Shown here: one piece after another, positions 1,067 to 36,799 of the stretch | How the letters are laid out: each line of letters begins with the position of its first letter | Numbering within the stretch: position 1 is the stretch's first letter | Source: Marsupella aquatica | Lineage: Eukaryota; Plantae; Marchantiophyta | DNA length: 64,000 nucleotides | Assembly (NCBI GenBank): GCA_973895155.1 | Contig: OZ316891.1 | Location: 32,472,423-32,536,422 of the forward strand | Direction of reading: 5' to 3' | Notes under the pieces: model-generated | Database searches by the model: none | Told to the model about the DNA's origin: nothing | What the model saw: only the letters and a program-made list of their open reading frames with translations | Translations under genes and position numbers: made by a program

Positions 1067-2998
1067 TTATAATTCTCTTAGTTGTTCCTTAACACTAGCC
1101 GTAACAGAGGGGTAGAACAACTTAGGATGATCTCGATTGAAGTCGCTATCTTGTGAAGGATTGGTTTCACTGGTGGGCTCATGGCTTACCTGTATTGCCG
1201 GAGCCCTCCCTTCTCCTTCTGTTGATGTTGACGAAGAGTCGATTCTTTCCTCCGTAACCTTCCCTTTATTTTTGGCCAGCCCATCCCACCTTTCCTTCCT
1301 TCTGGTAGATCGAGTAGAGACCCGGTAGCAATCATGATCTAAATCCTCCTCTGAGAAGGTTGATAGGGCTTCGGCCTCATCATCAGATGGTACAAACTCT
1401 GCCTCCGCATCCTCTTGCCATCCTAGTTCGATGTGGTTGATTTGAACTCCTCCGGGGGTAGTACCTGGCGGTAAGATCTTGATCGGCAAAAGCTTATGAT
1501 TTGCGGCCAGGCCTGCCAACCAAGTAGGACATTGCCCTAGCATATGACCTTCCTGTCGGCATCCCATACATAGCTGAGCTGGTTGTCCATCACCCTGTTT
1601 GCGTGCATTCGGGCATTCTCTAGCAAAATGGCCAGGTTGACCACAATTATAGCACGCCGCAAATCTTTGCACATTCGGCCTAGGAGGTACTGACGGGTTC
1701 TGAATAATCCGAGGATACATCTCTCCTGGATTGTTCCTTAACCCTGACCACAGAGATGCAGGTCTGTTGGATAGGTCTCGTGCTCCAGTCTCACTGATGC
1801 CGAAAACACTATCAGCGGCATCTCCCAAAAAGTACTCTACTTCTCCCTGACATGGTCTGATCTCGGCCACATGCCGAACATGATTAGTATTAAGCTTAGG
1901 ACAAGCATCTTTATGGTGTCCGGTTTTATAACATAAGGCACACCATACAGAGCTATCCTCCTGTACTACCTTCTTCTTTGGTTTTACCTCTGCAATGATA
2001 GCCTTAAGTTGCTCGGTAAGGGCTACGATGTTATCTGGTGGCTTAGCCTCCATCTTGACTTTCGTCTTCCCTCTCCTTCCGCCCTTCCTTTTCCTAGTTT
2101 TTTCTTCTTCAGAACTAGAAGATGACTCACTCTTGCTACTCCCACTATCCGAGCTTGACTTATCACTTCTAGACTTCTTGGAATGTTTCTTCTTCTTATC
2201 TTTTTTCTTATGGGGTGATCCCTCCTCTGATGAGGAACTCTCAGACTTAAGCTGTTTCTTCCGGCTTGTGATATCTGCATTAATGTATAATTGAATATCC
2301 TTAATTGCTTCGGCTAAAGTCTCCGGGTTCTCCTTCCTAATTGCAAAACTCATCTTCTGTGGCAAAGCATTCACCAACCATTGAAGTTGCATACCTTCAG
2401 ATGCATTGGTCTTTGTACGTCTTACCAGTTTCTGAAAGCATTGCAAGAACTTCCTGAAGGATTTGTTCTCCTTGAACCGAAGTTGTCCCAACTTCAGCAC
2501 TGCTAGTTCTGAAGTTCCAATGGGTCGAAACTCCTTAACAAAGAGTGTTTTGAAGATATCCCAGATGGCTTGATCTTCCACATCTAATGCTCTGTACCAA
2601 GGCCTAGCCTCACCCTTGAACAGGCCGGGAAGAATCTGCATCTTGATGGCCGATTCTCCATTTGCTGCAGCGGTTCCCTCGAAATCATCCAACCATTCGT
2701 CCGGATCCTCATCTCCTCTCCCATGAAATGCCTTGTAATGTATGCGCGACCGCTGGCTCAATCTGGTCCCTGGCCTCTCGTCTGGCCGTGCCTCTGGTTC
2801 CCCCATGTCGGTTGGAGACTCACTTCTCCTTACCGACTCTTCTTCTGGTATGTCTTCTTCGACGCCACTTCCAGTTTCGGAGCTACCAGCTCTTTCTGCC
2901 CCTCTCAGTTGCTGTGTATCATGCCACCCGGCGAGCTGCTGCAGTCGAGCTCTCTCCCGTTGAATCACTCTTTCTTCCCTCGGTGTAAGGTCAGTCAT
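1067..2998 (-). CDS. Ty3/Gypsy Gag (retrotransposon gag capsid + three CCHC zinc knuckles)
   Basis: FHGRGDEDPDEWL..., A..WY..L...W..FK..F gag pattern. Knuckles CALCYKTGHHKDAC, CYNCGQPGHFAREC and CMGCRQEGHMLGQC. Confidence 0.9.
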   Translation of the reverse strand: MTDLTPREERVIQRERARLQQLAGWHDTQQLRGAERAGSSETGSGVEEDIPEEESVRRSESPTDMGEPEARPDERPGTRLSQRSRIHYKAFHGRGDEDPDEWLDDFEGTAAANGESAIKMQILPGLFKGEARPWYRALDVEDQAIWDIFKTLFVKEFRPIGTSELAVLKLGQLRFKENKSFRKFLQCFQKLVRRTKTNASEGMQLQWLVNALPQKMSFAIRKENPETLAEAIKDIQLYINADITSRKKQLKSESSSSEEGSPHKKKDKKKKHSKKSRSDKSSSDSGSSKSESSSSSEEEKTRKRKGGRRGKTKVKMEAKPPDNIVALTEQLKAIIAEVKPKKKVVQEDSSVWCALCYKTGHHKDACPKLNTNHVRHVAEIRPCQGEVEYFLGDAADSVFGISETGARDLSNRPASLWSGLRNNPGEMYPRIIQNPSVPPRPNVQRFAACYNCGQPGHFARECPNARKQGDGQPAQLCMGCRQEGHMLGQCPTWLAGLAANHKLLPIKILPPGTTPGGVQINHIELGWQEDAEAEFVPSDDEAEALSTFSEEDLDHDCYRVSTRSTRRKERWDGLAKNKGKVTEERIDSSSTSTEGEGRAPAIQVSHEPTSETNPSQDSDFNRDHPKLFYPSVTASVKEQLREL

Positions 2999-3044
2999 TA
3001 CCTACGCTTCCGTTCTAACTTCATATCTCACGGCTTAAGAAATG

Positions 3045-3063
3045 CCCCCTCCATCTAGCGCCA
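3045..3063 (-). promoter_or_regulatory. Putative primer-binding site (PBS)
   Basis: Minus-strand TGGCGCTAGATGGAGGGGG begins 4 nt after the LTR's terminal CA and just upstream of gag. TGG start is typical of a PBS; the tRNA was not identified. Confidence 0.7.
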
Positions 3064-3067
3064 AAAA

Positions 3068-6000
3068 TGTGGTGCGTCCCATGGCTCCCTAAACCCAAGA
3101 AACCCCCCAGCTCAAGCCGATTCCCGCAGGTTTCGTGCTTGGCGAGGCCGTTTCCGCGGCTTAGCGGCATGGGACGCTGCTAACCTTCTACTACTACTAT
3201 TAACATTTTACACACATATACTGGACAGATCCTTCATCGGGTCATGAGATACGTAGCCGGCCTAATATAGGCCTTCCCCTGTCTTCCCCTGTCTTCCCCT
3301 CCGTCTTGTTAGGTATGTTTGGATTCCGCCGCCGGAATGATCCCCAATAGGCTTGGTTAAGCCACTAAGACCTCTCTCAGCTCGACACATCCAACTCTCA
3401 CTCCCCTGCTTACTTTCCTTCCTTCTGTTGATGTGGGCACTCTTCACACAAGTTAATGCGACACACAAATAGCAAAATGACTCATTCTGACTGAGTCATA
3501 CCATGCACTTGCCATACAAACAGTACATCTCATACACAAGTTCTGCGAACTAAGCCGTGAGGCCAACTCTATTCAGCTCTTAGGCATGAGGAAACATGAA
3601 TATACACAAGGGTCACTGTATGACTAACCGAGAGCTTCTCGTACTACTTGATCCCAGCCCGGCTGGTGCAAACTAAAAACTTGCTAAAGAAGAGGCCCTG
3701 AGCTCCCCGCTGCCCAGGTACTTATCCTGGTAGTGGATCCGCCATTCTTTGCATCGTAAGCCTAATCTACTTAACAGTAATCTACTTGCCCGAATCTACC
3801 TATGTACAGCAAGGCAGGAGCACAAGTGTTGCTCCTACCAGTGGGACCGCAATCCCACTAAGCTAAGTGTCAGGGCCGCTCCTGGTTCTGATCCTAATCC
3901 TAAACGTGGAGATCCGTGCCCGCCCTGCCCACTCACGCCTCCTCCCTCCACGTCCGCCCTCCCTAAAAGGAACGGCGCCCTTGCATCGTCACGACACCGG
4001 TGGTGGATCCTCAATGGACGCCCCCAACACTTCCTCCTCAGCCACTGCCGTTGGCCCGCCTACTGACAGATTACCTGCCTTTGACCGAGTCAACTCTCCA
4101 TCGGCCTGACTGGGTCCACCTTCGGCTTCAGCCTCGACAACTCCCACGGCTTCGGCTTCAGCCACCCCCACGGCTTCGGCCTCAGCCACCCCCACGGCTT
4201 CGGCCTCCCCTTCCCCTAGGGTAGTTGGATCCTTAGCCGTGACCCTGTCTGGGGTCGGTGCTGGGTCTACCTCCTTGATCACCACGGCCTGTGAAGTCGT
4301 ATTACTCCTTGACCCTGAAGGTTTCCGCTTCTTCTTCGTTGGTGGCTCGGTAGCTGGTCCCTTCCCCTTCCCATTTACTTCCGGCACTGGTGCAGGTGGC
4401 GCGGCTTGTCCTTCGGCAATTACCACCCCTGGTAACTGGTTCGCCCCAACGGGAGATGGACCTGCTGCAGCTAAGCATTTAAATACTGCGGCTTGTTTCT
4501 TCAGCCGCTCTGTTTGGTTGTCGGCCCGCCGCTGTAGGTTCTCCATCTTCCTCGTGATTTCCTCCAACTCCTCTTGGGTTTCATCCAGGTCCTTACGTGC
4601 CTCCTCCAGCTTGTTTTTAGCCTCCTCCTGCTCCCTGTGGGCTTTCTCCAATTCCTTCTTCAAGGTAGCCCTCTCCTCCCCGGTTGATCTTAGCTCCTTG
4701 TCGAGCTCTGCAATGATGACAGACTCCATCTGGTTCATCTTGGCATAAGTCTGATCGAGCATATCGTCCTTCTCCGTTAGGTTGGCTTTGAAGGTGGCCG
4801 TTAGGGACGCAAGCTCCTGCTGCAGCGCAATAATCCCTTGATAGGATTTCCCTAACTCGGCCTCCTTCTGCTCAAGGGCTCCGCGGCTTTTCTGGAGCTC
4901 CCCTTTCAACGCCCGTTCCTTTCTTTGGGTCTCCGCCATGGCCCGATTGTTAGCTGTTATGTGGGCCTCCTCTGCATTCCTCAGCTCTTGCTTCCACTTC
5001 TCCCTCTCTTTGATCGCATCGGCCAACTCTCCTTGGGTCCGCGTCAGTAGATTCTCGATCATCCGGTTTTCAGATTGTGCGGTATCCAACTGGCCCTGCA
5101 TGATATTTAGCTCATGCCGCTTAATCCGCAGCTCATCTTGGGCTTTCTTGGCCGCCCTCAGGTCCTTGATTTCGGCTTCCCTTTCCCTAAGCCGACGGAT
5201 GACCTCGTCCTTCTTGCTTCTTTCCAAGGCCACCGCTTCTTCCAATTGGCGCTTCTCCAACTGCTCCCTATGGAAAAAGGGTCCTACCTCCAATTCCTCC
5301 CCAAAGATGCCGAGCGCAAGTTCCCCACACATCTCACCATACTCCCTGGCTCTATTCTTAGCGTAGGTGGAGTAAGTAGAAGTGATCGGCATCGCCCATC
5401 GCGGCCTCTGCTCCCAAGCCGTCTTGCGGGTCTCTTCAATCGTGGCTAGAGGTTTGCTTCCTTTTTCGGCTAGCCGCCTCATGTCCTCCGGCCAATCTCC
5501 TCCTGGTAAATGCTTTTCCCTAGCCAGGGCTGCTTCCTCTTCCTGCCTGATTCGCTCCTGAAATTCCAGCGCCGTCTGTTTTATGCCGTCAAAGCTCGGG
5601 GGAGCAACATCTGGTGGAGGAGACTCAGGGCTACTCTGCTGGTTGGGGTCTTCTCGTACTACCCTTGGAAGTGTGGGGATAAACCGGCCACAGGTCCTTA
5701 CTCCTGGAACGTGATGGTCCGACCCATAGCCGGAGTTATCATGGCCGCAGTCCTCCACTGCCTCCTCTACTTCTTCTACTTCCGGCTTCTCCCTCTCTTC
5801 TTCGTTGGTAGGAGCTTCCGGCAATTTTGCCTCAGATTCAGAGCTTGAGACTCCGGTAGAGGGGTCTTCCCTTCTAAGTCTGCTTAAGTTGACCTCTGGG
5901 GCAGTGTCCTGCATTGTTGCCGCTGCCGTTGTCATTGCCGATGCCGATCTCTTTTCTTTCTCCAGCAGCTTCAGCAGACTCTGCATGCCTGGTTGCTACA

Positions 6001-7402
6001 TCGGCAAGTCTTCCTTCCTTGGCTTAAACACCTGCTCAATTGTAGGGCTAACAGGTGGTTGAGGCTTTTCTGCTACCGGCCTCGGTGCTAGAGCTTCCTC
6101 GGGTGTCCTTACCTTCAGGGGAAGTACTGGGGCAAAGGTCTGACCTCTGGCATACCGGCACAACAACGGCATGTGATAGCCAAGCCGCGACACGCTCCCC
6201 ATGCCGATTACCTGTTGCTCCTCCTTTAATATCTTCTTCAATTGGTTGAGGAGGTAGCCGTTGTAGTCCCGGCTTGGGTCTGGCCTTTCTGCCAGATAGA
6301 CTTGTGCCTTGCCGATCTCCGCTCTCGGCAAGTTACAATGCATGGTTACCCGCAAGAAGTCGATCATCTCTCCTATGTGCGGGTTGGTGCATGTGTTTCG
6401 GAAGAAGCCATTCTTCGTTGATGGTCCGGGAAACGACCGGAACTCCTTGTCAGGCAAGGTTTTCCTGGTATCAACCTTGGTCTTATTGCCTATCGATAAG
6501 CCAAACACTTCGGCAATTACCTTGGGAGTAAGATAGAAATCCTTCCCATATATTCTCGTGCAATTGGTCTCGGGTTCCCATGACCCCATGAATTCTAATA
6601 GGTCTGAATCCGGCACCTCCGGCTTCAGCCATGGTAATCTTACAAAGGCTTCCAAGCCGGATCCGGCCATGAAGCCTTGGTACTTCTTGGTCTGCATGGC
6701 CGTAAAGCATGCATCCTCCTCCTGTGCAAAATGTAGTTGCACCTCCATTGGTAGAGTTGCCGCCCAGCCCTTCCAGGTGTCATCCCTGGTTGGAATGGCG
6801 TTGATGGGGTCGCTTTCCTCCTCCTCGGCTTCGCTCTGCCTCCTGCTCTGCTGTTCGGCTGGTTTCTTTGGTGCCGCCGACCTCGTTCTTTTTGCCGGGG
6901 TGGCTTCATCGTTGACGACTCCCTTGCTCTTCATCTCAGCTACAGTGGAGGTTTCTCCTAGCACTATTGCTTGGGTCCACCTTTCTGTGCTACCCTTTAA
7001 TTCCCAGTGTATGTCGTTGCAATTCTTGATGGCCTCTCGGATGCCGATGATGCTGTCTTTGCAAAACAGAAGATCGTCAAGCTGATTGGAAGTAGGAGTC
7101 CACAAGAACTCGGCCTTGATGAGTTCGCCTCCTAAGAAAGCCGTTTTCTGCAGCTCCCACAATCTAGCGAGCTCCTGTCGTTCTCGAGCTGCTCTTTCTG
7201 ATTCTTCATCCTCGTAAGTCTTGATGTACTCAGTTGCCCGTTCGAACAAGCATCCCCAGAAATGTGCCGCTTGATTGACGTTGCTCATACCCTCCTTAGG
7301 TCGATCATTGGTATAGGGTTTTGTCCCTATACTAAGGTGTTTCCAGGGTGCATCCTGCTTTACCCCCTTAACTGGCCGAGTGATTCCTGGCTAGGCATCA
7401 CA
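3068..7402 (-). mobile_element. 5' LTR (4,335 bp) of Gypsy family A; contains a long ORF
   Basis: TGTGGTGC...GCATCACA terminal inverted repeat. Adjacent PBS and gag. Colinear end to end with the TSD-flanked copy at 26217-30793. Confidence 0.92.
3989..7288 (-). pseudogene. LTR-encoded ~1,100-aa protein (helical transposon-accessory domain + Pro/acidic linker + long coiled coil); one premature stop
   Basis: ORFs 5996..7288 and 3989..5986 are in frame. The TAG at 5996-5998 is CAG in copy 2. Confidence 0.85.
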
Positions 7403-7560
7403 GGTAATAAGACCAAGGTTGATACCAGGAAGACCTTACTTGACAAGGAGTTCCGGTCGTTCCCAAGACCATCAACAAAGAATGGCTTCTTTCGGAACAC
7501 CTTCACCAACTCGCACATTGGAGAGATGATCAATTTCTTGCGGGTGACCATGAACTGTAC
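7403..7560 (+). mobile_element. Diverged inverted fragment of the family A LTR ORF abutting the LTR
   Basis: Translates GNKTKVDTRKTLLDKEFRSFPRPSTKNGFFRNTFTNSHIGEMINFLRVTM, nearly identical to the ~6340-6495 segment but on the opposite strand. Confidence 0.85.
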
Positions 7561-8204
7561 TTGGCGCTATGATGTTTCATGGTTGTTTTTCATTACGGTA
7601 TTCAGTTTTGGGTAGCGCCTGGCGCTATGATGTTTTCACGTATGAGTTGATCGCTATGTTTGGGACCCTGGATGATTGAAAGTGAACATTGCATTGGATT
7701 TAGAGAGTTTTTACCCATTGACTAGCCGGGTTATTAATGGAATATTCTCTTTGCACATGAAATTTTGGGATATATTGTTGACGTTTTGGTTGAAATATTT
7801 TCCTGTTTCCTTTTTGCTGTTTCCTATTTGGATTTTTCTGTTTCCTAGCACGGTGGTGATACCCAAAAAATAAGGACGGAGTTCCGATTTGGTTGAGGAT
7901 ATGTTTGAGTGGTTGTCTGCACTCTGTTAATTCTTCTTGTAATTATTGTCGTGATGCCCAAAACAAATATCATTGATTGGCATATTTGTGTTGTCGAATT
8001 TGGAACGAAGATCCTTGGGTTAACTTATCGCGTTGAATCTTCTTGATTAGTGTTTAGGTGAACGTTCTTGGGTCAAAAATTTTGTGAATATATTTTTCTT
8101 TTGATCAAAGAAATAAAATCAGTTTTTCCATCACTATTTTGTAGGTTGCTGAGAAAGACCTCACCATCTCATTTATTACTCCAGGTATCCACTCTTATTT
8201 TGGA

Positions 8205-8744
8205 ATGGCCGTCATTGAGAACCCTGTCTTTACAAGGTTAGCGATGTCATTCGACAAAGAGAAGAAACAAATTCAGCAGAAAAGTGGCCAAAAGGAATCC
8301 GGATTGCTTTTGGATGGACTTCCTGATGAGATTGTTGAAATGTTCATTTGGCCCATTTTGAAAGTTTGTTGTATAGAGGATGCATTTGATTCCTCCAAGA
8401 ACCAAGCTGATGAAAGATTGATGCAATTAAAAATAATGGTGTGGCTTGGATGCACCTCCAAGAAATGGAACCAGCTCGTAATTTGTACACGAGTCTTGGG
8501 TATTCTTAGACTAGCAAGAAGCCAGTTTGAGGAAGTAAATAAAATGCTGACAAGCATTCTCGATGGAAAACCCCTTCAGAATGTTCATATTGAAGCTTTT
8601 GTTAGGATGGAAACACCGAATCTTCCTCCAATCGATAATATAGGTTTATTTTCAAGGTCTGACCTAAATCGATTTCAAGAAGACTGGCACAATCTTGAGA
8701 AAGATGAGCAAGCAAGGCTCTTGGAAATGTATGGGGAAGCTTAG
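8205..8744 (+). CDS. F-box-like protein (179 aa)
   Basis: LLDGLPDEIVEMFIWPIL ... LGCTSKKWNQLV resembles an F-box (LPDEI...I...L ... CK.W..L) with an insertion. Confidence 0.55.
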   Translation: MAVIENPVFTRLAMSFDKEKKQIQQKSGQKESGLLLDGLPDEIVEMFIWPILKVCCIEDAFDSSKNQADERLMQLKIMVWLGCTSKKWNQLVICTRVLGILRLARSQFEEVNKMLTSILDGKPLQNVHIEAFVRMETPNLPPIDNIGLFSRSDLNRFQEDWHNLEKDEQARLLEMYGEA

Positions 8745-9269
8745 AGTCCGGTTTAGAGTCCTTCCATTCATGTTTTGGACTGCTCATCTTGAATGGGCTC
8801 TTTGTTAGAATGGACTCTTTTTAAGAATATCAACTTAGTTTCGAATGAATAAAGAGTTTTGTGATTCGACCCTTGCATCAACCACATTTGCCACGCGTAA
8901 AATCTATTTGGTTTAATACAAGGACGTGGGGATATGCCTTATCTACATCTAGTCAGAAACAAAGTCCTATCAAGCGAAAAAAGTATAAATAGACCTCCGG
9001 ACTCCAACCCTCCGCTTTTGGATACACCTTATCGCCTGTGGATACGAAGGTGATAAAGTATAAATAGGAGAGCCTGATCAGAAAGTTTACGCTCATTTCT
9101 TATCCTTCTCAACTTCACTTGCCTCCATGTTTTTCTTGGGCTGCAACATCTTTATAGCTTTTTGTATTTGCTCCAATCAAAATAAAAAAGCAAGTAAAAA
9201 CTCAAGAAACTCTCCCCTCCTTGTCGCACTTCATTGTTGAATCCTGAGTGCAAAGAACATAACATTTCA

Positions 9270-9820
9270 AGGTTGAATACGAGATGGGATACCGCGTATC
9301 CCATCTCGCATCCAACACCCTCTTTTTTAGTATTCCATCGGAACCTCCTAGCTGTTTGTTGACTCTAAATACAAAATGGGATACCACGTATCCCATTTCG
9401 GATTCAACTTTGTCTTTCAGTGCAGATTACTAGAAATTCCTGATGTTTAGGGTTTAGGGTCATTGGGGAGGATCGTTGCAAGAAGAGCCGCATTGGATGA
9501 TGTTGGATACGAACCGGGATACCCCGTATCCCATTTTGCATTCAACTCCCTATTTTTCATTCTTTGAATCAGACTCCAAGCAACTGTTGATGTTGGATGC
9601 GAAGTGGGATACCGCGTATCCCATTTCGCATTCAACTCCCTATTTTTTGTTCTTTGCAACAAACTCTAGGCAATTGTTGATGTTGGATGCAAAGTGGGAT
9701 ACCGCGTATCCCATTTTGCATTCATTTCCCTATTTTATGTTCTTTGCATCAGACTCTAGGCAATTGTTGATGTTGGATGCAAAGCGGGATACCGCGTATC
9801 CGATCTCGCATTCAACTACT
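9270..9820. repeat. ~90-bp tandem repeat with palindromic core GGGATAC-N3-GTATCCC (about 6 cores)
   Basis: TGATGTTGGAT recurs at 9498, 9588, 9678 and 9768. GAGATGGGATACCGCGTATCCCATCTC at 9281 is a palindrome with a 3-nt spacer. Confidence 0.92.
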
Positions 9821-9869
9821 TTTGAATGTTTACGCTCTTGTTCTTAGTGTGTCAATCTTTTACAGGAAC

Positions 9870-12800
9870 ATGTCAAACAAATCAAAGTCGTCTGGTTTGA
9901 CCGAGTCCTCACGGACATCCATCATCGATGAGATTTGGAAGAAGGACCTTTACACCGAGGAGAAACTTGTGAGAAATAGGTGGTACTTCAAGGATGCCCG
10001 AGCGATGGATATTCACAGAGCCTATAAAGGTCCAGCTATGTGGTTGGTTATAGTTAAGGGAAAAGACCATTGCCATTATGGATTAGTCGTGGACAGTGCG
10101 GAGGCAGATATCACCAACGCAAAAACAAAACAGCTGAAGAAGATTCCAATGTACCTTTGCATTCTTCCGAACAATGTCTTCATTGTAGTTGTCCTCAACT
10201 ACGAGAAACTTGATCGGGTCTCGATGAACACATTTCCTGATGACCCGATCTACAAGCTAATTTTGCAAGTTCCGAAGATTGAGGACTTTTCTTATTGGTG
10301 TTTGAAATTTGTCTTCAAGTCTTGGAGGGTTGTTGAGGATTTCACCAATGTTGCATATTGGTCCGTCGTTGGAGCTGACTTTGGCGTCAAAGAGCGTCCT
10401 CTGAAGTTGAAAGTGACAAAGCCTATCGATCTGGCTTCGAAGTCAGGGGAGATGTCTGGAACACCCTCGACAAAGGAGAAATCTGCCACAGTTTCTTTTA
10501 AGGAACCGGCAAAGAGGAAGCTTGCATATCAACTCTCCGGGGAAGGTTCTAAAGCAGCGGTGTCAGGAGAAGTTGCTGGCAAGAAGAAACTGGATCGATG
10601 TGACATCCAGAAGCGCGCACCATCTGCACTTGGAAGTGTTGTCTCATCTTTGGTCTTATCAATTTTACAGACACAGTCTCAGATTCCTTCAACTTTGTCA
10701 GGTGGGCCTTCTCTATCATCTAGGGGTGCGGTGAAAGAAAAGAAAAAAGATTCAACAGATACCACCACAGCTTTGCAGCGGGAAGAGACACTTGTGGTTT
10801 GTGAAGAAGTGTCTCGGTTGATGGAGATCAAGAGAGTTCAGAAGACAACAGTTATTCTGAAAATGACTAACCTACTTCTTGTTGACAATATTGACGATGA
10901 GAACTCAACATTGGTTTGAATAGTCGATCGGTTGCATGTGGAGAACATCAAGACTTTGATGAAAATGAATCCAACAAATTTCACCACGCCATTTGTCTAA
11001 TTTGTGATCCCCGAAGACTGCCCGACAGTGACAGACTGGGACCCAGAAAAGGCAAGGAGCTGGAGATATCGAGTGATTGGAGGTAATCACGGTGCTTGGG
11101 CTAAGAGAGAATTGTATCAGGCTTATGGGAGAGAGATCTTCAATGAACTCCAAGCTTGGGTGTATGCTGGTCTCACAAGGGAGGACATTCAGAAATTTAG
11201 CATCCAACATAATATTGATCAGGAGTACAGGAAAAAAATAAACAACATTGATCAAATCCAAACAATGCATAAGATTTTCCTTGCCAGAGGTATGGCAAAA
11301 ACCAAGGAGACTAGAGAAGCGTGTGCCATGGAGGTTTGCCACGACGGGTTTTTTCCAGGGGATGCCACAAGCCTGAAAAAGCATGAACCTCTCTTCCAAA
11401 TTGCGTTTAGGTCGGGTAAGGTCTGGGAACTCCAAGACCAGATCTTTGAGATGTGGAACAAGTTGGAGATCAAAGGGCAAAATAAGCAGAAGTCACCAAT
11501 CAAGAAACTGAAGAAAAAAGGAAAAGCACAGTCAATTCCAAAAGCTTTGAATAAGCTTGTAGGGGGCCTTACCCTGACACCTTGGAGAGCAATCCAGGGA
11601 ATTGAACACGACCAATTTTTGGAGTCCCTTCTTCTCCGAGTGAAGGACCGGATGATCTCTTTGGAGCAGATGGCAAAAGAAGCCGAGAGTTACAAGAAAC
11701 TTGTGAAAATCAGCAAGCTTTTTGTTCAGTTGTCAGGGCAGCCAGACTGGGCGACTTGCAAACAAATGTTTCCGAAAGAAATAGAATCTGCCAAGCTCGA
11801 AAGATGGAGTGGAAAGTTGTCCGATGTGGTATGTTCTCCCCTTCCATTGATTGGACTTTTCTATTTGTTTCTCATATGGTCGACTAATCTTATATGGTTT
11901 TAAGAATTTGGGTGGTTTCCTTCCTGGAATTCTTGTTTGAATGCGTACTAGTTGGATACGGGGTATCCCATCTCGGATTCACTTGTGGTTATTTGACGTT
12001 GGTGATGTTTCAATTTGGTTTTTGCTTGGTGGAATGCAAAGTGGGATACGGGGTATCCCATCTTGGATTCACTTGTGGTTTTTTTACTTTGGTGATGTTT
12101 CAATGTGCTTTTTGCTTGGTGGAATGCGAAGTGGGATACGGGGTATCCCATCTCGGATTCACTTGTGGTTATTTGACGTTGGTGATGTTTCAATGGGGTT
12201 TTTGCTTGGTTGAATGCAAAGTGGGATACGGGGTATCCCATGTTGCATTCGTTGTCCAGATTTGATTGTTTGAATACCTAAATGGTTGTCTCCCCATTGT
12301 CTTTTCTTTGGATTCTTTTAACAAGTTTGCGTTTGCAGTTGAAAGCTTTTTCAAAGAAGAAGAACAAGGATGCAATTGGTGCCAATTTGGTTGAGAAGCC
12401 TTCAGAGGAGCTGACTTCAAGTGTTATTCCCCCGGGGTTTAAGAATTATGTTCAAGAAGCGATTGAGAACTACAACCATCGTCGTGGGATTGAAACGGTT
12501 GAAGCAGAGTCGAGTGACCATCGATGGAAAAATGCTGATGGAAATTTCATCAGATATACATTGCATTGTGGAGATGTCAGGGCGCTGGATAAGTTTGAAG
12601 AGAAAAGGAATTACACACTTGCAATTGCAGACATTCCTTATGGATTCAATGCGCCTGGCTCTGAAAATGATGAGGTCTCATTTTCAGAGAGTGACATTGT
12701 GGTTGTGGTGAAGTGTTTTGCCAAGGTGACAAGTTCAAAGATGTGGAGGTTTGTTGTGATTCACTCTTTGCAGCAAACTTGGTCTGTGATGAATGCCCTG

Positions 12801-13448
12801 GGAAAAACTTGTAACGTAGGTGTCAAGGCTGGAATTTGGGAGAAGCCAAATGTACATGCTCATCCTTCCGGGAATCGATTGGCTTGGGCTTTTGAAAACT
12901 GGTCAATCGGATATTATCACGAGAGTGGTATTAGGACCAGAGACATGTACAATTTTGAACATGATGAGAAAAGGGTAAACATCATAAAAGTTCCTTGTGT
13001 TACAAAGAAATGTGTAACACCATTGTGGGAAATACTGAACCCTTACTAGAAGCCGATAGCTCTAGCAGATTGGTTCATTCAACATTTTAGTGAAGTAGGG
13101 GATTGGGTTGCTGATTTATGTGCGGGGAGTGGTTCGACCTCATGCGCTGCCTTGTTAGGGAAACGTCCGATGACAGCCGTGGAGCTCAGTTCAAGCCAGG
13201 TGGATTGTATCCGGACCCGACTTGTCACGCTTGATGAATTGTGGGACTTGAATGATGAAGCAACCAATGAGGGTACAGGACCTATGAGCTTCGAGGTTCA
13301 ACCACCTATTGGTGGTACTACGAGCACCCTCACCACTGGAACTTGCATCATTACAATGGCGGAGGAGAACGACAATGATGAGGATGAAGAGGATGAAGTG
13401 GAACATGAAGCTCCAACACTTGATCTTGGCTCATTCCTTGAGGTGTAG
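9870..13448 (+). pseudogene. ParB/Srx-like domain + beta-class amino (N6-adenine/N4-cytosine) DNA methyltransferase fusion; exons 9870-11828 and 12339-13448 (~1,020 codons; in-frame stops at 10917, 10998, 13047)
   Basis: ParB-like YRVIGGNHGAWA...AWVYAGL...QHN (~11070-11215). MTase LHCGDVR...LAIADIPYG (motif IV, ~12630), then NPY*KPIAL (QKP) and VADLCAGSGSTS...AVELS (motifs I/II, ~13110-13185), which is beta-class order. The phase-0 GTATGT...TTGCAG intron joins the frames exactly. Confidence 0.85.
11945..12250. repeat. 90-bp tandem repeat (4 cores, GGGATACGGGGTATCCC) inside the ParB-MTase intron
   Basis: Cores at about 11951, 12041, 12131 and 12221. Same palindrome and same 90-bp period as the 9270-9820 array. 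Confidence 0.92.
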
Positions 13449-13563: not shown

Positions 13564-13983
13564 GAACCAAAGGTGGATTTTGTATTGAAACATGTTCTAC
13601 ATAGATTCTCACACAATACTTCTAGTGGGTTTCTTTTGGATAATAAAATATTGAGCCAACTTGAACCCGGTCAATATTTGGGTGATGAAATAATGGAATT
13701 TTACCCACAATTAATAACCAAGGAACATGGAGATCTGGCTCCCTCAGTAAACACATTATCCTTTTTTTTTTTACCCTTGGCTTGTTTCAAGGATTGAAAT
13801 AGAACCAGCTGAGACCTTATTGGAATCAATTCAAAAGATGCAAAATTATTACAAGCCACTATTTTCCCAAATTGAGATCATTCTCATGCCAATTCACATG
13901 AGCATGCACTGGAGTCTGGTTGTAATATGTTTGGATCGGATCGAATCTTTGATCAAAATGTATCATCTAGACTCTCTTGCCGG
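13564..13983 (+). pseudogene. Ulp1/SENP-like C48 cysteine protease fragment, frameshifted and truncated by an LTR insertion
   Basis: LEPGQYLGDEIMEFY ... ILMPIHMSMHWSLVVIC ... MYHLDSL gives the catalytic His and Asp. The Gln/Cys segment is lost at the LTR junction. Confidence 0.8.
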
Positions 13984-15552
13984 TGTCCGGGTGACCGTGT
14001 TTTCTGGTAAGAGCATGTTGGCTCTTATAAAGTTAACCTTGCATGCCCATAAGTTCTACACTAAAACCAAAATGATAACTTTTGTCAGAAGGGTGGTGGG
14101 TATTAAGAAAGGTTCAGGTGAAACTAATATACTATTAAATCCTACTTCACCATACTTGCGGATCAACACATCTCGGAAACTAATTTTTCTACGACATACA
14201 ATCCTAATATCTCAAAAAGAAAATGAAATAGGAATGTCATCTGGACTCCTATTTAGATCCATGACTTCAATAAAAGACAAAGATAATGCACTCCCACTCC
14301 TCTCGGTAAGACACTATTGGGTATACTATTGGTTCATTAGAACTCATAACAACAGCTGCAAATTGAGCTCCAAAGTGATAAGTTAAATGTTGCCTCATGG
14401 ATGGCTTGTCTAAAAAATGGACTCTAACCAAAAATGGGTTACGAAGGGGAAGATTAGGAATATCTCTCCCTCCTAGATTCATAATGACTCTCTTATTCCT
14501 TTGCTATCCGGGCCAAAGAATGCCCCACCCCTAAGTTCCCAAAGAGACCTTGTTCCCTAAGATCCCATCTATAAGTCTACCATTCATTCCTTTGCTATTT
14601 GGGCCAAAGGATGCCCCACTACTATATACATAAGGCAAAGAATAGAAGAGAAAGATGAGAGAAGAAAAGAGGATCGCTTCGACATGGAAATTATCAAAAT
14701 GTGAGAATGAAGAGAGAGTGTCTCTCACCACTTTATTTATATTGAATCCAAGAGGGCATGGATTACGCCCAAATGCTTGGATGAAAGCCAAATGGCACAC
14801 ATCCAACATAGGAATGTGTGCTAGTACTATTGCAATCAAAACAAATAATGCATGCAAGTAAAATAACTAATGCATGCACCTAAAATAATTTGTGCATGCA
14901 TGCATCTTGTGGCTTGCACATTTGCTCACCTTGCATGCGCATAAAACAACTAATGCATGCAAATAAAATAATTTGCATGCATCTAAAATAATTTGTGCAT
15001 GCATCTTATGGCTTGCACATTTTTTCACCTTGCATGTACATAAAACAACTAATGCATGCAAATAAAACAATTTGCATGCATCTAAAACAATTTGTGCATG
15101 CATCTTGTGGCTTGCACATTTGCTCACCTTGCATGCACATAAAACAACTAATGCATGCAAATAAAACAATTTGCATACATCTAAAACAATTTGTGCATGC
15201 ATCTTGTGGCTTGCACATTTGCTCACCTTGCATGCACATAAAGCAACTAATGCATGCAAATAAAACAATTTGCATGTATTTAAAACAATTTGTGCATGCA
15301 CCTTATGGCTTGCACATTTTCTCACCTTGCATGCACATAAAACAACTATTGCATGCTAATAAAACAATTTACACATGCATCCAAATAATTTGTGCATGCA
15401 TCTTGTGATTTGCATAGTTGCTTACCTTGCATGCACATACGTAATAGTCAAATTATTTAGTTACCCCGTAACAAAATATAAATCTAACCTATATACTTAC
15501 TAATATACTTAGTGGTAATGATTTCATCATGAATAATTGAATTATCACGACA
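13984..15552 (-). mobile_element. Putative 3' LTR of Gypsy family B
   Basis: TGTC...GACA ends. Begins where Ulp1 homology stops. A purine-rich tract (GGTAGGAGTGATA, minus strand) lies between the integrase stop and the TG. No partner LTR found in the window. Confidence 0.6.
14845..15440. repeat. 99-bp tandem repeat (~6 copies, ATGCATGC-rich) within LTR B
   Basis: AAAACAACTAATGCATGC-like unit at 14943, 15042, 15141, 15240 and ~15338. Confidence 0.92.
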
Positions 15553-18789: not shown

Positions 18790-19721
18790 CACTACAACAT
18801 ATTTGACACTTTTGCAAAGGTATTTTTGTCAACGCTCTTGTATTTCCGATGGGCGGCGCTTTGCATATTTTGCGAATCAACCCGTATCGCAAATATAATA
18901 GCTAAAGCGCATTATATCGCTAATTGCAAAGTACGTGGTTTTGCAAATTTTACCAAAACGCGTCGAATGGAAAGGCGCCTTTCAAAGATGGAAAAATCGC
19001 TCGCCGACTCCGAAACTAACTCATGTAAATATTTGCAAAGAAGATTGGATTGAAAATGTTTTGCGATAGTAGTTGTTTGACAAGTTTAAGAATGTCGGAG
19101 GATGGAAGATTTGCAAAACGGTGAAAATATGAAATTTGTGATTGATTTTGCATCACAAGTTTGCGAAGAGTGTAGTATAAAAATATTGAGAAACGAGAAG
19201 ATTCATAGAAATTGCGAGTCCGGTGAGAGTTTGTGAGCTTCGCAAATTATTCACAAACTAAAAATTAAGATTATTGTGAGGTGAGACAATGAAGAGGGTG
19301 GATGGTCCAATATATGGATGGGGCAGGAGGGAAGAGGAAGGGAGGATAGAGGGAGGTACAATGAAGGATGGAAAAGGGAGGGAGTACAATGGAAGAGGAA
19401 GGAGGGAGGAGAAAGAGGAAGGGAGGAGGAGGGACAGACGTACCACGGAGGAGGGAAACACGAGAGTGAGAATGAAAATTATGGAATAAGTAGGAAATAA
19501 AGTTATATTGAGCAACAGAGGTTAGATAGAAAGTTGCATGTAAAATTCACAAGTGATCACAATAAAACAATACAATACATATGTCATGAGTATGACTCAT
19601 TCAAAAGTGAATGGCAAATATAAATATAGACAATCCTTTTTTTATATCACCAAACATGAACAAATCAAATATAACATGAACAAATGTCTAGGCTGGACCC
19701 AAGTGCATATAAATATGTCCC

Positions 19722-22700
19722 TCACACTTGGTCCTCATCGGCCTCAAGGTCATCTAGGTCTGATACAATAACATCTGGCTTCTCAAAAACAATGGAACGA
19801 GAACGTGGCACATAGGTGATGACAATTGACCACTCGGTGTCTAAGGGGTATGGAATGTAGAAACATTGCTCCAAGTGTGATGGGAAAGCAAATGGTTCTG
19901 ACGTTTGCCAATGAGATGCTTGAACACTAGTGGCACTTGTCTTCAACCGTGTAAACCCACTCTCATCTTGAAGTACAGTGCAATTTTGACCAACAAGGTT
20001 CACTTTGAACCACTTGCACTTGAAGACATATTCCTCAAACTTTGAATGGTTGTCATATGATACCACCAAGATCTCCTCTATCTTCCCATAGTGTGGCACA
20101 ACATCTCTAACAATGTTCCTGTCATGGCGGCTGCTTCTGGAGTCTTGAGAAAATTCCCCTTGAACTCCACAATCAAAAGTACGACCCCTCTTCTCATAAG
20201 GGAAGAAACCCTGAAATGAACAAAACCCACAAATTTTTATTACACTGTAAAAGATACCATTAATGTAATAATCATCAAAATATGACACCTATCCCTAAAT
20301 AGCCAAAACCCACATGGCCTATGGCATAATTATAGAAGCCAACATTACAGTTATGGATGTCATTAATGATAATAGAAAGTTTTTAAACAATAGAAATAAC
20401 TAATCAAAATAAGGTCTACATGAATTAATAGAGGAAGAAAGGTTAGGTACTAGTGGACCTGAAGTGTCTCCCTTGTGTCCACATAGCCGTCTTGGATGTC
20501 ACCACTCTCAAAGGGCCATGAACAATGGTCCGAACGTCATCTGTGATGGTAGGAAAGTGGGACACATCTCCTCCTTGTGTCACCATGTCATCCAACTCAA
20601 GCAACTTTTGCTTCATATACTCATGCATCTTAGGAAAAATTCTTGCTCTTTGACTTGTTCTCTTGGCATTCTCATAAAACTCTCTCCATTTCTCCATGAT
20701 ATTACTATTACTCAACATAAATGTTGTCAACTGTGACCACTCTGTTGATGTCAACATGCGTGTTTTTGTGGCACCTGTTAAACGGTCCTCCTCCTCTTCT
20801 CTTTCCTCCATCCAAGTACGTGGACAAGTAGGATCAATGGTGGCCAAGATGTTACTACAATAAATCATACTCTTTGCTGCCAAGTATCATGTAGCTATGC
20901 TTCCCTCCACCAGTGCACGGTTACGTACATAAGCCTTCAACACCGCCATGTAACGCTCAAGCCAATACATCCATCTACAATGCACTGGACCTGCAATGGC
21001 AACCTCCCGCACAAGATGCACAAGTAAATGAACCTGACAATCAAAGAAGGAAGGAGGAAGGGCTTTCTCCAACTTGCATACCACCTCAGCTGCCAATACC
21101 TCCATCCCAGGGATCTCTTCTACATATATCTCCTTTGAGCATATCCATCTCAACAAACGACCCAATGACCAGATGGCATCTTGCACTTCTTCACTCCCTA
21201 TACCTATAATTGCCACTGGCAATATATGCTGCAATAGGCGATGATAGTCATGTGTCTTCAGATATCGTGGCCACTTGTGATTGTCCTCCATCCCAAAAGC
21301 TTTTCGAAGGTTGGCACCATAGCCTGTAGGAAACCGCATCTCTCCTATACGGTTCCAAAATTCACGTCTTTGGCCAACACTCAACACCCAAGGAGCAGAA
21401 GGACGATTCTCCACACCTGTGATAGGATCAATTGTCACCCAAACATCTGGATGCATTTTCATCTCCTCGCATGCCTCCCTAAAATTAGTGTCCTTCTCCC
21501 CATAAAAATGCTTTATCAAAGCCTTCCCCCCACATTTCCCTCTATGTGCATGGGGTCTAAAAGATGGCGGATCTTCAACTCAGACCAATAGGGCAAAGTG
21601 GCTAGTATACTCCACCTGGTCAAACCTGTCCTATCAAAGGTGAAGGAATCATTTGGGTCTGCCACCCTATCAGCTAGTGACTTCCAATGTGCAAAACTTG
21701 TTGCATCAGGAATTTCACGCTCATCACCAAATGGCATGTCAAAGGAGGAGAATAGAAGTGGGTCAAACCTCATCTCATGCCCCATGGGAAGAAACTTTGT
21801 ATGCCCAATATAAACAATCTTTCTAATCCATGAACAATATGTGGCCATGTCCTCTAAGCTTGGGCCACAAGTAGAGTAAGCTTTGTACCCCTGAGTTTGC
21901 AATCCAGAGACAAAACCAAACCCTGCTTACATAGAAGAAATCAAACCATGCAAACTTTATGTTAGAGTTGTCACATGAGAAACATCAATAGGAACTACAC
22001 ATTATTGAAGGGTTGCAAATGGCATGGAAGTCATCTTACCAGGATAGTCACGCATTGTCCAACAAATGATCCCTCTCAATTGAAAGACACGTGGAAAACC
22101 TCCTGTAATTTTCCTGCCATCATATGCCCACACTCCATTCCATAATTTTTGAAGTTCTCCAACCAATAGTGCCAAGTAAGTGTCAAAGTTCTTCACCTTT
22201 TTTGGACCTGGGATAATCAAAGACAATAAAAGGAACCCCTTCTTCATGGATAGCCATGGTGGGAGGTTATAATTCATGACAACCACAGGCCAAACTGATG
22301 TAGGTTGCCCCTTTCCTCCAAGTGAATGAGGGCTAACTCCATCAGATGCCAATCCTAGCCTCACATGGCGAGGATCATGTGCAAAGTCTGGCCATGTTGC
22401 CTCAATATGTTTGTGAGCAGGGGAGTCAACTGGCAACCGCATGACACCAGACTCTGATCGATGAGTCTTATGCCATACCATCAACTCTGCCAAGTCAGAA
22501 CACCGATACATGTGCAACAACCGAGGAATGATGGGAAACCAACGAACAACCTTCCTTGGCACCTTCTTTGTTAGCATGTTGGGGTCATAGCGAGGCTCAT
22601 CACATGTTGTACATTGTGTCATGTTTGCATTGGCCCCATGAAATAACATGCAATCATTCACACATGCATGAACAATATGATATTCCATGCCAATAGATGA

Positions 22701-24541
22701 GAGAACACTCTTTGCCTCCTTCCAAGTTGCTGGCAACACATTCTCAGTGGGCAACATAAGGTCATGGCAAAGTGCAAACATATCAGATAACAAGACATTG
22801 CTTGCCTTGTGTTTGGCCTGTAGGTTCATCAACCCCAAGATGGCTGAAAGACGACTCAAACGAGCACCCTCATAGATAGGTGTTTGGGCATGTTCCTCTG
22901 CTTCTTCCCATTGGCGTTGTCCCTCAGGGGTATGTCTTGGGCGTGGATCATTGGGGGGCACCTGCCCTTCATTGGGAAGGTCATCACCAAGGTTGTCGGC
23001 ACCAAACCAATCAACCATAAAGTCATCCATGGCTCTATCCTGGTCATCAGTTACTTGTTCATCCGTCCAAGGTACCTCTTCATCAGGGTTACTGCTTCCA
23101 CTAGCACTTGATGAGGAGTGTGACTCTAATCCATGTCCTTCTTCTGGCATACCCATTTCTCGATATGTTGCTCTCAATCTCCGTGGTAACATATTTGGAG
23201 AGGGTCGCACATTCTAAAAACAAAGCAAACAATTGAAAGTTATATTGCAAAGAGAACACACACAAAAATGGGCTAGGGGTGTGCAAAAATGAAATAATAT
23301 TGGTTGTGGTGCAAATACAAAATGTGGCCAAAGGCATATGTAGTGTCCTTTGATATACAACATACCACCTATGACCCTTAACTTAACCCTAATCCCACTC
23401 ATAGTGAGTAAATAACTCATCCCCTGAGTTAATGGTCCTTGTTGCTACAACTAGGCAATGGTCATGATGATATGTCTGGCCATAAGGTGCTGGCGGAGGA
23501 CCCTCAATGAAAACCCACTCACAATTTTGCCTACGTTTAGGGCGAGTCCCCACGGTACTGTTTATGAAACCAACAATATTCCCAGTCCGTATGGGGTCCC
23601 CATCTATGACACGCTGCTCACTATACCTTCTAGTGTTTCCATCAAAAGTATCCATGTCCAATGCATAAGTCTTCCACTCAGGGTGTTGTGCAAGGATCAT
23701 GTTCCAATATCTTCTGTTGTAGATGGGTCCACCATAAGGAAACAAAGTAGGCCCCTCTCGGCCGCGTCCACCTCTACCACTCTCGGCGTCCACAATGATG
23801 TCCTCACAGGCAAAAACTCCATAGCCATGTCTATCCCCAAGTGTGGAAGGTTTGATAACCCAACGTCTACCCCAAACCTCTACCTCCGCACCGTAGGAAA
23901 GCTGTTGTGGCAAACCAAAAGTCTCAGGATCCCAGTCCTTGATGACAGGGACACATCTGCCAGTGAACTCACAATCACCCCACCGACCCGTAACCACTGC
24001 CTTGTACAAATCAGTATCCCCTCGGGCCTGCCTCTTGGAACGCTTTCTCCCTCTTGGGACAATAGCCTCAACCCCAACTTCCCTAGGACTGGTGGGCCTT
24101 GCCGCTAGACCCAAGGCTTTTGAGAATGCATTGCCTATAGCATCTAGAACACCTTGTGATGGGACATAGGGTGCTTGTGCCGCAGGTCTAGGCCTATTGG
24201 ATACCTATTCCACCGAAACCAAAACAAACAAAAGTAGGTGTGAAATTGCAAACCTTCAACCATTGAGTAATGGGAATAGGGTAGGAAAACTAAGGCATAA
24301 CACTTACCATATGAGATGAAGAAGCCCCTGCCGTATGACGTCCACAACGCCCATATCTCTCAATATGTTGGGCACATATGTAAGATTTTTGGGAAACCTG
24401 ACCCACACATCTGGAACATTCACAAAGTTGACGGGGTGGACTGCGAGGAGGAGGTGCGGTCGTGTGATGTTGAGGTGGAGGTGGTGTATCTTCATCAGAG
24501 GAGGACGAGTCTGTGGTGGAGATTTCAAAAGATGAAGACAT
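19722..24541 (-). pseudogene. CACTA transposase (TnpD-like): transposase-associated Cys/His exon 24541-24308, then Transposase_21 (from 23213), DUF4218-like and DUF4216-like exons; a few stops
   Basis: HACVNDCMLF..CTTCDEPRY, RLGLASDG, SVWPV..YNLPPW, DYPG, LDPMHIEGNV, KTHDYH, HLLVHL..GPVH.RWMY..ER, FKCKWF, EPF..P. Confidence 0.92.
23389..24541 (-). CDS. SET-domain protein (~349 aa): exon 24541-24308 + exon 24204-23389
   Basis: IKPSTLGDRHGYGVFACEDI, GNIVGFINS, QNCEWV and VATRTINSGDELFTHY are SET signature segments. The phase-0 GTAAGT donor and AATAG acceptor keep the frame, with no stops. Confidence 0.8.
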
Positions 24542-26216
24542 ATCCCTTGTAACAAGATATAATTAAAATGGGCATGTTATGACCAAAACATACCACAAAA
24601 TGATATAAATCAAAGTTCCCAAATAATGATGACAAGAAACCCAAACCAAAATGACCATAGCAATAAAAAAGGTACCTTTATGAGACCCGGGCTCAGCAGT
24701 GCCAATAGGTCTTGTGGCTCTAAGATAATTAATGAACCCAATCTGAAAGTATGAGGGAAAAGCTGCAACCATTCCATGTATATGTAAGCACAATAATCTG
24801 GACCAGACAAGAACAAAAAACCCTATATACATGTCCCCTTTATACATAGTGGCAACCAAAAGTGTTAAGTACATGAAAGGAACACTTTAGCCGATCATGC
24901 AATGTTTACCTTTCAGATGCTCGGGCTCTCACAATGCATATGCATTAGTATCAAATCATCAAAAAGTGCCGCACCCTGCAAGCTATCATATATTCCTCTC
25001 CTTTGTTAGCAAAACCCACGCCAATCCCCTTTTGATTCATAAACCCAATGAACCTCTCTTAAACCCAAAAGGCTGCAATATAAATCTCATGAAACCTTGC
25101 TTTGTCTTATCCAAACCTTCAACCCCAAACCGCATCCTACCTATTAAACCTAAATCTGACTTACACACAAACCCAAACCTTTCTTCAACCCTAGAGACCT
25201 TTCTATTTAAAAACCCCAAACCCTAAAACCCTAAACCCAAACCTTACTTATTTCTTGTAAACCAAATCCCACACCTTTATTATTTCTTCTAAACTAATGT
25301 AAACCCAAACCTTAGCCTAAACCAACACCATACATAACCCATTAACCTGAAATCTGCCTAACCCTGCAAACCCGCCTTCAACTATTATCTAACACCCAAA
25401 ACATGGCCAAAAAGCATTCCAAATATGAGTATAGAGGGGTCCACTTCACCTTTGAAAAAAACCCTTTCAAATGAAGCCAACATTCCCCCAGGACGAGTTG
25501 CCAATGTCTTGCGAAGCCGCTTCCTTCGCAAATACCATCACAAATTAGAATTGAGGTTTGCGAAGCTGCTGCTTTCGCACGACCTTCAGAAAAACAGAGC
25601 CCGAGAGCATTTCTACGAGAGAGCGAAGGTGTTGCAAAGCCTTTCACGTCGCAATGGTTTCGCAAAATTGAGAAACTATATGCGAAACAAGAAGAATCGC
25701 AAATTGCAAAACGGGTTGCTTTGCAAGTCTTTCCCGCTTGTACTTTTGCACTCGGCCGCGGCGTACTCAGCGGCATTTGACAAATTTCAAGCGTAGGGAG
25801 GGAGAAGGGAGCTCGCGCGCGCTCGGGGGGTGGCTTGGCTATGGATTCCAGTGGAGCAAATGGAGGTGATGGGGCAGGGGTGAGTGACAGTGGCAATGGG
25901 AATGAAGGCAATGGGGAGCAGGAGAGGAATCGATGGACCGATTTGATGGCTGAGCACCTCAATGCAGCACAGTTGAGCCACTTAGATTTGACTACACCAG
26001 CAAGGATTGCTTCTTTGAGTGCAATCCTTGGGCAAGCCTTGCAAACGGGAGTAGATGTAGGGAACATTGCAAGGGAGGAGGAGCAAAGGAGTGCAGCTCA
26101 ACAGAAGGCAAGAGAGAAGAAGCGTAAGAAGGAGGAGAGGGCCAAGGTAGGAGTAGTCTCACCTGCTGCCCTAGAAAAGAAGAGGAGGAGAGAGGAACGA
26201 GATGAGATAAGAGCAC

Positions 26217-35914: not shown

Positions 35915-36799
35915 GATTGCAATTCTTCCCTCTTGACTAATGATATACTCACAATTGAAGGACTTATAGTTCCAAAATCATATCTCTCTCTATCAACCAA
36001 AACTTAGACATGCACAAGTTAGCTCCAAAATCCACGGATCCCACTTGGTATTCGACCCACCAAATTTGGCTCCAAGGCTGCCCCTCCCTGCAATTCTGGC
36101 ACATTTGGACTCCTCATTGAACACTGGACACAGCTATCTTCACTCCCGGAGAACAAGACATTGGAAAAACCAACGGAGATCTTCGGGCGGGCCTACATGG
36201 TAACGTTGTTCTTGGCATTAAAAACCGGGGCCTTCATCTTTGAAGATCTGTCGGGGTTCGCGGAGAACCAGGTGTCTCTGTCGACATAGGAACTACATTA
36301 GGCTTCTTTACAAGTAGAGGTTGTTTAAGAGGTTTACTTGGAGAGACATAGTATGAAATCGAAGCACCCACAACACTCCTACAAGACTCTGATTTCTCAG
36401 ATTCTGAGGAAAATGAAATCTCTGGCACTACTCTCTGTGAGCTGGTAATTCATTCATCACATGAGATGGAATAAATTTTTGAACAACATCTGGCAAAGAT
36501 GCATCTGAACTGTAAATTGACTCATCACTTGAAGACGCCATAGAGAATCAAACAAGGGTTGTATAGGAGTACGTATTCCTATCCAACAGAGATAATTCAG
36601 ATTACAGTATTCTATGAAAACAACTACTCAATACTGAACGAACCTCAAAGTAATCGCGAGAAATGAAGATGAAAAACAGATGCGAGCTCTTCCTTTTATA
36701 GTTTTTGGGGGCATTGTACACGTGGCATTCCCTGATTGGTCCGTACGAGGGTTTTTTCAAGTGAGAGTCTGTCTTTTCAAGGAATGCTGAAATTTAAAT

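Follow-up and report, generated by a model that had tools for sequence, protein, structure and literature searches.

Why should a liverwort genome carry a gene in which a ParB-like part is joined to a DNA methyltransferase of prokaryotic type, and what would such a gene do there? The question is raised by positions 9870-13448 (+ strand) of a 64-kb stretch of Marsupella aquatica DNA (contig OZ316891.1, positions 32,472,423 to 32,536,422), which is called here the window and whose positions provide all coordinates, unless they are prefixed with a locus identifier. The locus holds a decayed, dead member of a multi-copy gene family that couples a predicted ParB fold to an amino-methyltransferase, and this family is very probably borne by a transposon.

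As read here, the gene has two exons. The first (9870-11828, +, 653 codons) is interrupted by a TGA at 10917 (codon 350) and a TAA at 10998 (codon 377), and it is followed by a phase-0 GT-AG intron (11829-12338, +), which holds four palindromes (11955-12225) and whose length and sequence differ in other copies. The last exon (12339-13448, +, 369 codons, broken by a TAG at 13047) encodes the core of a beta-class amino-methyltransferase and an acidic tail. This agrees with the preliminary description of the locus, made from the letters alone, which had joined the fragments into one intron-bearing gene with three stops and had explained two of these by CGA>TGA and CAG>TAG changes. Both changes fit, since the residues that the relatives align to the three stop positions are R, L and Q; the TAA at 10998 is read as TTG in other copies, in all four sequencing runs. 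Besides the stops, the window copy has further changes at conserved sites, e.g., R410W. The position of the intron is confirmed by the relatives as well: 13 of the 16 close exon-1 relatives extend to the junction, where 12 of them run into Val, reading through the GT donor, and end soon after, and the remaining one (P0179) crosses it spliced and aligned in register with the start of exon 2, all of which argues that the intron is real. GT is also present at the junction codon in four of the five nearest loci, L004 being left unsettled by a crude test. A search for RNA data sets that contain the gene listed none, which does not bear on its expression. Two exons should be taken as a minimum, since the ATG at 9870 is preceded by a possible acceptor AG and L001 and L002 have an additional intron that separates the N-terminal from the ParB part; no longer forms of the gene were returned by word-index searches, which are weak evidence in this regard.

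To which class does the enzyme belong? The methyltransferase core (about 12546-13238, +) matches PF01555 (N6_N4_Mtase), for which exon 2 scores 28.8 bits against a curated cut-off of 26.7, and its motif IV (DIPY, 12630-12641) stands before motif I (DLCAGSGS, 13113-13136), with an NPY*KP segment around 13047, which is the order of the beta class. A family profile built from 16 sequences is closest to N6-adenine enzymes of this class, with E values of 5e-18 (5hek), 2.6e-16 (MboIIA) and 1.8e-15 (CcrM) in a range that reaches 2e-14, and RNA methyltransferases, at 8e-3 or worse, are not the best match. The class that had been proposed from the motifs, and the profile match that had been expected of it, are thereby upheld. 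On these sequence comparisons, the mark would probably be N6-methyladenine (6mA) rather than N4-methylcytosine (4mC). An alternative that we find improbable maintains the same targeting as discussed below, with 4mC as the mark, which would sit on CG sites and there block or imitate the 5-methylcytosine (5mC) of the host. The N6_N4 domain has repeatedly switched between 6mA and 4mC in evolution, the characterised eukaryotic captures cited here, N4CMT and DN4MT1, both write 4mC, and CG occurs in the palindromes of many relatives; however, the family profile reaches only 5e-5 (8s9m, N4CMT) and 1e-4 (PvuII) with N4-cytosine enzymes, and motif IV is led by Asp, not by Ser as in the TSPPY of DN4MT1.

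For the other half of the protein, the assignment relies on a predicted fold, since exon 1 gives zero Pfam matches even at an E of 10. A ParB/Srx nucleotide-binding fold is predicted at 10824-11234 (+), including the GGNH at 11079-11090 and interrupted by the stops at 10917 and 10998. In a structure model of codons 311-653 (pLDDT 80.8), ParB or Noc proteins account for all eight Foldseek matches at E<=1e-3, and in VIA comparison the best structural matches include PadC (Z 9.6, root-mean-square deviation (rmsd) 2.9 over 97 aligned residues) and KorB (Z 8.1, although with an rmsd of 15). The ParB/Srx-like GGNH domain of the preliminary description is therefore borne out by the predicted fold, though without Pfam support. 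It is followed by a helical region (11235-11828, +), predicted to bind DNA, with a weak likeness to the DNA-binding domains of KorB, ParB and SopB (VIA Z of 5.0 for 1r71, 4.2 for 6s6h and 3.8 for 3mkw), these values lying within the range of unrelated helical matches. The Arg of box I is conserved in the family at codon 350, where the window copy has its TGA, and modelling the ParB part of P0174 as a homodimer gave a score of 0.10, which provides no answer. Upstream of the fold, the N-terminal region (9870-10480, +) has no Pfam match and is conserved in the nearest relatives (phmmer E of 5e-8 with L002 and 1.6e-7 with L001); an Atlas search with residues 1-200 gave Transposase_28 as its best score (0.87), with few shared features, so that it is a lead only.

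The fusion is not an accident of the window copy, since many relatives carry the ParB and methyltransferase parts in a single protein. A profile-library search with exon 2 returned 391 relatives at E<=1e-3, and among 30 clusters that were looked up the named organisms were Chara braunii, Adiantum nelumboides and Ginkgo biloba, the other labels being "hypothetical" or "DNA modification methylase"; when aligned, several of the named copies seem degraded. Scanning for loci with the exon of the window gene itself was fruitless, but an alignment-based scan yielded 97 loci, of which 80 were kept and underlie the locus counts given below. The gene is multi-copy in sequencing runs as well, as judged from the 1109-3596 contigs per run that align to 6 kb at the gene (four runs, two organisms). 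The family is under purifying selection: dN/dS, the ratio of nonsynonymous to synonymous substitution rates, falls between 0.02 and 0.11 in the unsaturated, usable pairs (18 out of 95), and the proportion of nonsynonymous differences (0.11-0.29) is below that of synonymous differences (0.76-0.89) in all ten pairs with the nearest loci.

The history of the family was addressed with a FastTree phylogeny with SH-like supports, in which 115 of 255 rows remained after coverage and 95% filters (L085 was dropped). It groups the window gene with L001-L005 and P0003-P0005 (SH 1.0); Adiantum and Ginkgo join them in a wider clade (0.96), to which Chara is sister (0.87), and phage and plasmid enzymes are left outside. 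Deep in the tree the nodes are weak, no support value is given for the one that unites the family, and no donor can be named from it. The comparison with bacterial, N4CMT and DN4MT1 enzymes that had been envisaged is answered in part, namely for the phage and plasmid enzymes that the tree includes. The best phage matches have 21-29% identity and cover the methyltransferase part only, and pattern scans for relatives gave 13 matches in viral contigs and 12 in prokaryotic genome contigs, none of which was confirmed. Taken together, the tree, the low phage identity and the empty scans suggest an old capture that has since been carried along within streptophytes. Several deep-branching relatives (P0096, P0117, P0056, P0055, L018 and L077) have DPPY or DLPY, several of them encoding both ParB and methyltransferase within a single open frame, and their hosts are perhaps algae or protists.

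Domains of prokaryotic type with such distant phage matches could also be what contamination by bacterial or viral DNA, or a mis-join, would bring into an assembly. The probability of this is close to nil: the gene has a spliceosomal intron, the window holds a plant telomere and plant transposons (the plant host assumed at the outset being upheld), all bins are covered in four of four runs, and no relatives were found by the pattern scans of viral and prokaryotic contigs. Contamination and mis-join are largely refuted by the run coverage, the splice junction and the tree.

What, then, carries the gene? In nine of the 80 loci it adjoins a gene encoding a DUF7869 protein, which stands upstream and divergent in L007, L027, L030 and L037 and downstream in L003, L004, L068 and L023; L003 and L004 belong to the clade of the window gene. 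L030 represents a whole element, in which the methyltransferase gene and the DUF7869 gene are the only ones between 37-nt terminal inverted repeats (TIRs) that are 97% complementary, and a terminal end of the L030 type recurs in 12 of the 80 loci with differing flanks. DUF7869 is likely a transposase of Sola-like type, as suggested by its sequence motifs (a D360 region, HND413, LDNTARENKN and GHTHDHID), which in relatives are spaced, by eye, as in the Sola2 alignment. Its model compares weakly with the SIV integrase (VIA Z 6.3, rmsd 3.5, 84 aligned), with zero Foldseek matches at E<=1e-3 and zero VIA matches at Z>=8. Across five elements, the identities of DUF7869 and of the methyltransferase rank alike, and this co-divergence, together with the purifying selection, makes the methyltransferase gene look like a core accessory gene and not like passive cargo. 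The transposon setting claimed in the preliminary description is hence retained, and the idea of a passive cargo is abandoned. Separately, two regions of the DUF7869 model (L030:2660-3200) can be mentioned: a beta-rich C-terminal domain (residues about 730-830), whose best matches include a weak likeness to the BAH domain of DNMT1 (Foldseek E 0.018), and a winged-helix-like part (residues about 208-290) that precedes the acidic motifs, which might point to a chromatin reader.

The preliminary description had also called the gene domesticated, and one can ask whether the window copy is the pseudogene of a host methyltransferase comparable to Marchantia DN4MT1. This is very unlikely. Conserved introns, a tree broadly congruent with plant phylogeny and purifying selection would all suit a host gene, but a domesticated gene should be intact and low-copy, and the family consists of very many divergent copies, several of the named ones degraded, with linkage to DUF7869 and with terminal repeats in varied flanks; the window gene itself is multi-copy and broken by three stops and changes such as R410W, and its relatives lie inside inverted-repeat elements. 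Domestication is accordingly rejected.

The window copy itself probably derives from a DUF7869 element. Just downstream lies a broken Ulp1-like protease gene (13564-13984, +, PF02902 with an E of 2e-7), which ends at the end of a high-copy Ty3 element at 13984, where a step in depth and loose ends are seen (13981-13984). One contig spans 13233-13984 and so joins the methyltransferase end to the Ulp1 gene in another copy, and none of the 80 loci has an Ulp1-like neighbour. The DUF7869 gene of the source element would have been lost when the Ty3 element cut the unit at 13984. On the left, the boundary of the multi-copy unit is placed only to the interval 7403-9270. A 199-codon open reading frame (ORF) at 8145-8744 (+), with an F-box-like LPDEIV stretch seen by eye and without a Pfam match, lies just 5' of the palindromes described next and is possibly a further cargo of the unit.

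Arrays of short palindromes, which the preliminary description missed, accompany the gene. Six copies of GGGATAC-N3-GTATCCC in units of about 90 bp lie at 9272-9828, upstream of the ATG and perhaps in a first intron, and together with the four in the intron they make up all ten exact GATAC-N3-GTATC sites of the window. Among the related loci, three or more palindromes with the same arm occur in nine of 80, compared with none of 200 resampled sequences, and the 16 kb that lie upstream of the ParB motif hold 52 palindromes, compared with 12 for 154 kb of other positions; of the 15 loci that cover the upstream zone, nine have them. The arm differs by family, being GGGATAC in the window, TCGATAC, TCGATGC or CCGATGC in others, GCGAGAC in L002 and a 16-bp form in L001, and the palindromes are unlike the terminal inverted repeat. 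In L007, L027 and L030 they sit in an apparent first intron, between the divergent genes. That the palindromes are recognised by the ParB-methyltransferase protein is, on these sequence patterns, somewhat favoured, and the arrays help the earlier suggestion that the element marks its own DNA. Elsewhere in the window, three related 16-bp palindromes of the GGGATCCATGGATCCC type, with flanks like those of the gene's array, occur at 36870-37080 and about 36000-36560 (- strand); they lie upstream of a broken minus-strand ORF just past the Ty3 gag and may mark where this element, or one related to it, has its other end.

What would an intact protein do at these sites? The hypothesis that we put forward, at even chances, is that it binds the palindromes of its own element and adds N6-methyladenine near them, as an accessory of a Sola-like cut-and-paste transposon. 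A dimer would recognise the 17-bp palindromes as ParB does parS, the ParB part would load there and then spread along the element, and the fused methyltransferase would methylate the adenines of the element; the mark might protect it from host silencing or time its transposition, as VANC does for VANDAL. In the rather unlikely alternative of a transposition regulator, the protein or DUF7869 would bind the palindromes to repress the divergent promoters or to organise the transpososome, and any methylation would only gate the access of the transposase to the ends, much as Dam gates transposase access at the ends of bacterial insertion sequences. In favour of this, the palindromes of L007, L027 and L030 are located in the first intron, between the two divergent genes, the best structural matches include a repressor of ParB fold, KorB, and DUF7869 has its possible winged-helix region. 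Nonetheless, the palindromes extend into internal introns and downstream DNA as well, which exceeds the need of a promoter-operator, the terminal repeat contains none, and motifs IV and I are conserved across the family.

Several observations weigh against the self-marking hypothesis and the transposon on which it depends. Regarding the carrier, a target-site duplication was not seen at L030, which alone among the loci has both ends and whose contig may merge copies; the window has neither a DUF7869 gene nor a matching terminal repeat; DUF7869 is absent from 22 of the 29 loci with roomy flanks, some of these being prokaryote-like or truncated on the side that matters; and its model is poor (pLDDT 44.7), with weak RNase H-like matches. 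Regarding the sites, the searched pattern is absent from six of the 15 loci with an upstream zone, L001 and L002 having other repeats, the putative recognition helix does not follow the GATAC and GATGC arms (L026 has both), and the CpG content of the gene (0.55) is about the window mean (0.57), with no sign of escape from 5mC decay. Regarding the protein, motif IV is DIPY instead of DPPY in 43 loci, DPPY or DPPF being found in eight loci and in deeper branches. ParB CTPase clamps have an arginine patch (GERR, GxxRxxA); at its position, relatives have GGNHGARA or GGSHSAEA and the window gene GGNHGAWA, so the patch is missing. With these departures, catalysis and CTP use stay putative, and the protein is best described as one of ParB fold with at most a putative CTPase role. 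Furthermore, streptophytes are reported to be without abundant 6mA, and the transposon Dam enzymes of that study to be inactive in E. coli (bioRxiv 10.64898/2026.05.21.726589).

The remainder of the window is largely made of other repeats. A CACTA element (18790-33071, ends CACTACAACA, ATT duplication) is nested in the pol gene of the Ty3 element that cuts the unit at 13984; since the methyltransferase gene lies outside its ends and it is a separate insertion, it was rejected as the carrier, as were the SET genes, and a link between the methyltransferase gene and this CACTA is not supported. The element contains Tnp2, a SET-domain ORF (23392-24204) and a nested 4.5-kb copy (26217-30793), similar to a long terminal repeat (LTR), of 3068-7402. 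The window is subtelomeric, with a telomere array of about 315 TTTAGGG units at 61794-64000 and subtelomeric arrays of 83 bp and 577 bp at 58256-60509; a 99-bp tandem array lies in the Ty3 end (14838-15439), and a BAHD-type transferase gene and a cytochrome P450 gene are present as fragments, at 44099-44767 and 50353-50862.

How do the known systems compare, as described in the cited sources? With beta-class N6-adenine enzymes (5hek, "DpnA" according to the PDB listing, M.MboIIA, CcrM and M.RsrI) the family shares motif IV before I, QKP and PF01555, and it differs from them in having mostly DIPY, a long N-terminal fusion of ParB and helical parts, introns and no restriction partner that could be seen. 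ParB loads at palindromic parS and spreads (PMC10547168); the predicted fold, the predicted helical domain and the clustered short palindromes nearby are common to the ParB, Noc and KorB clamps, whereas the family has GGNH or GGSH for the arginine patch, a fused methyltransferase, no ParA and eukaryotic hosts. The sites bound by VANC are motifs arrayed in tandem within the introns and intergenic parts of its own VANDAL element; VANC removes 5mC, and its motifs are 9-base non-palindromes that vary between related elements (PMC5735166). An element-coded accessory protein and short, element-specific tandem motifs in introns and intergenic DNA are thus shared, but here a writer of prokaryotic type is predicted, in another type of transposon. 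Sola transposons have DDD, TIRs and a 4-bp target duplication, with Fanzor as an accessory of Sola2 (PMC10741241, PMC3627910); the DDD pattern (in relatives, by eye), a protein of 870-900 aa, TIRs, a size of 2-9 kb and accessory genes are common features, although the TIRs were found in L030 only, with none in the window, the 4-bp duplication was not seen and the accessory here is a ParB-methyltransferase.

Among the eukaryotic methyltransferases, bdelloid N4CMT (PMC8885841; chromodomain) and Marchantia DN4MT1 (bioRxiv 2021.02.12.428880; TSPPY, no extra domains) are 4mC writers of the same beta-class PF01555 type, and each is a gene of its host with a copy number of one or two. DIRS and LTR retrotransposons that bear Dam provide a transposon-borne adenine methyltransferase that is thought to mark its own copies (bioRxiv 10.64898/2026.05.21.726589), in that case a Dam-type NPP enzyme; Dam-LTRs are reported absent from streptophytes, and neither "ParB" nor "PF01555" occurs in the portion of that text considered. 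A chlorophyte-type Dam that carries an HTH (helix-turn-helix) of ParB type, along with phage ParB-terminase loci, has been described (PMC4738411), and it also represents a ParB-linked adenine methyltransferase in eukaryotes, but one of Group 2 (DpnM-like), with the HTH only, in chlorophytes and chytrids; the sections considered show no permuted clade for Chara, ferns or Ginkgo. Transposon-borne methyltransferases are, in sum, already known, as Dam in DIRS and LTR elements, in viral Mariner elements and as ParB-HTH-fused Dam in chlorophytes. A beta-class enzyme with a full ParB fold in streptophyte inverted-repeat elements with palindrome arrays was not found in the literature, although subscription papers, Repbase or supplements may mention it, and the literature search found no paper on DUF7869.

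Whether plants have true 6mA or 4mC, and which enzymes write them, is contested, and a multi-copy family that evolves under purifying selection and occurs in Chara, a fern, Ginkgo and further plants gives places to look, namely young copies and palindromes. For DUF7869, a function is suggested by its linkage to the methyltransferase gene. More tentatively, and with the odds against it, an ancient streptophyte cut-and-paste lineage may have rebuilt a ParB/parS-like self-recognition akin to a bacterial centromere, with a nucleotide clamp that loads on element-specific palindromes and slides, and whose fused methyltransferase writes 6mA (or 4mC) on self DNA only. If this were true, transposon-borne methyltransferases would extend from retroelements to cut-and-paste elements, and there would be a second independent route to the sequence-specific self-protection of the VANDAL type. 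Eukaryotes would then also possess an epigenetic writer that is guided by ParB/parS; in plant genomes it would act as a local source of methylation other than 5mC, and it would be a natural programmable spreading methylase.

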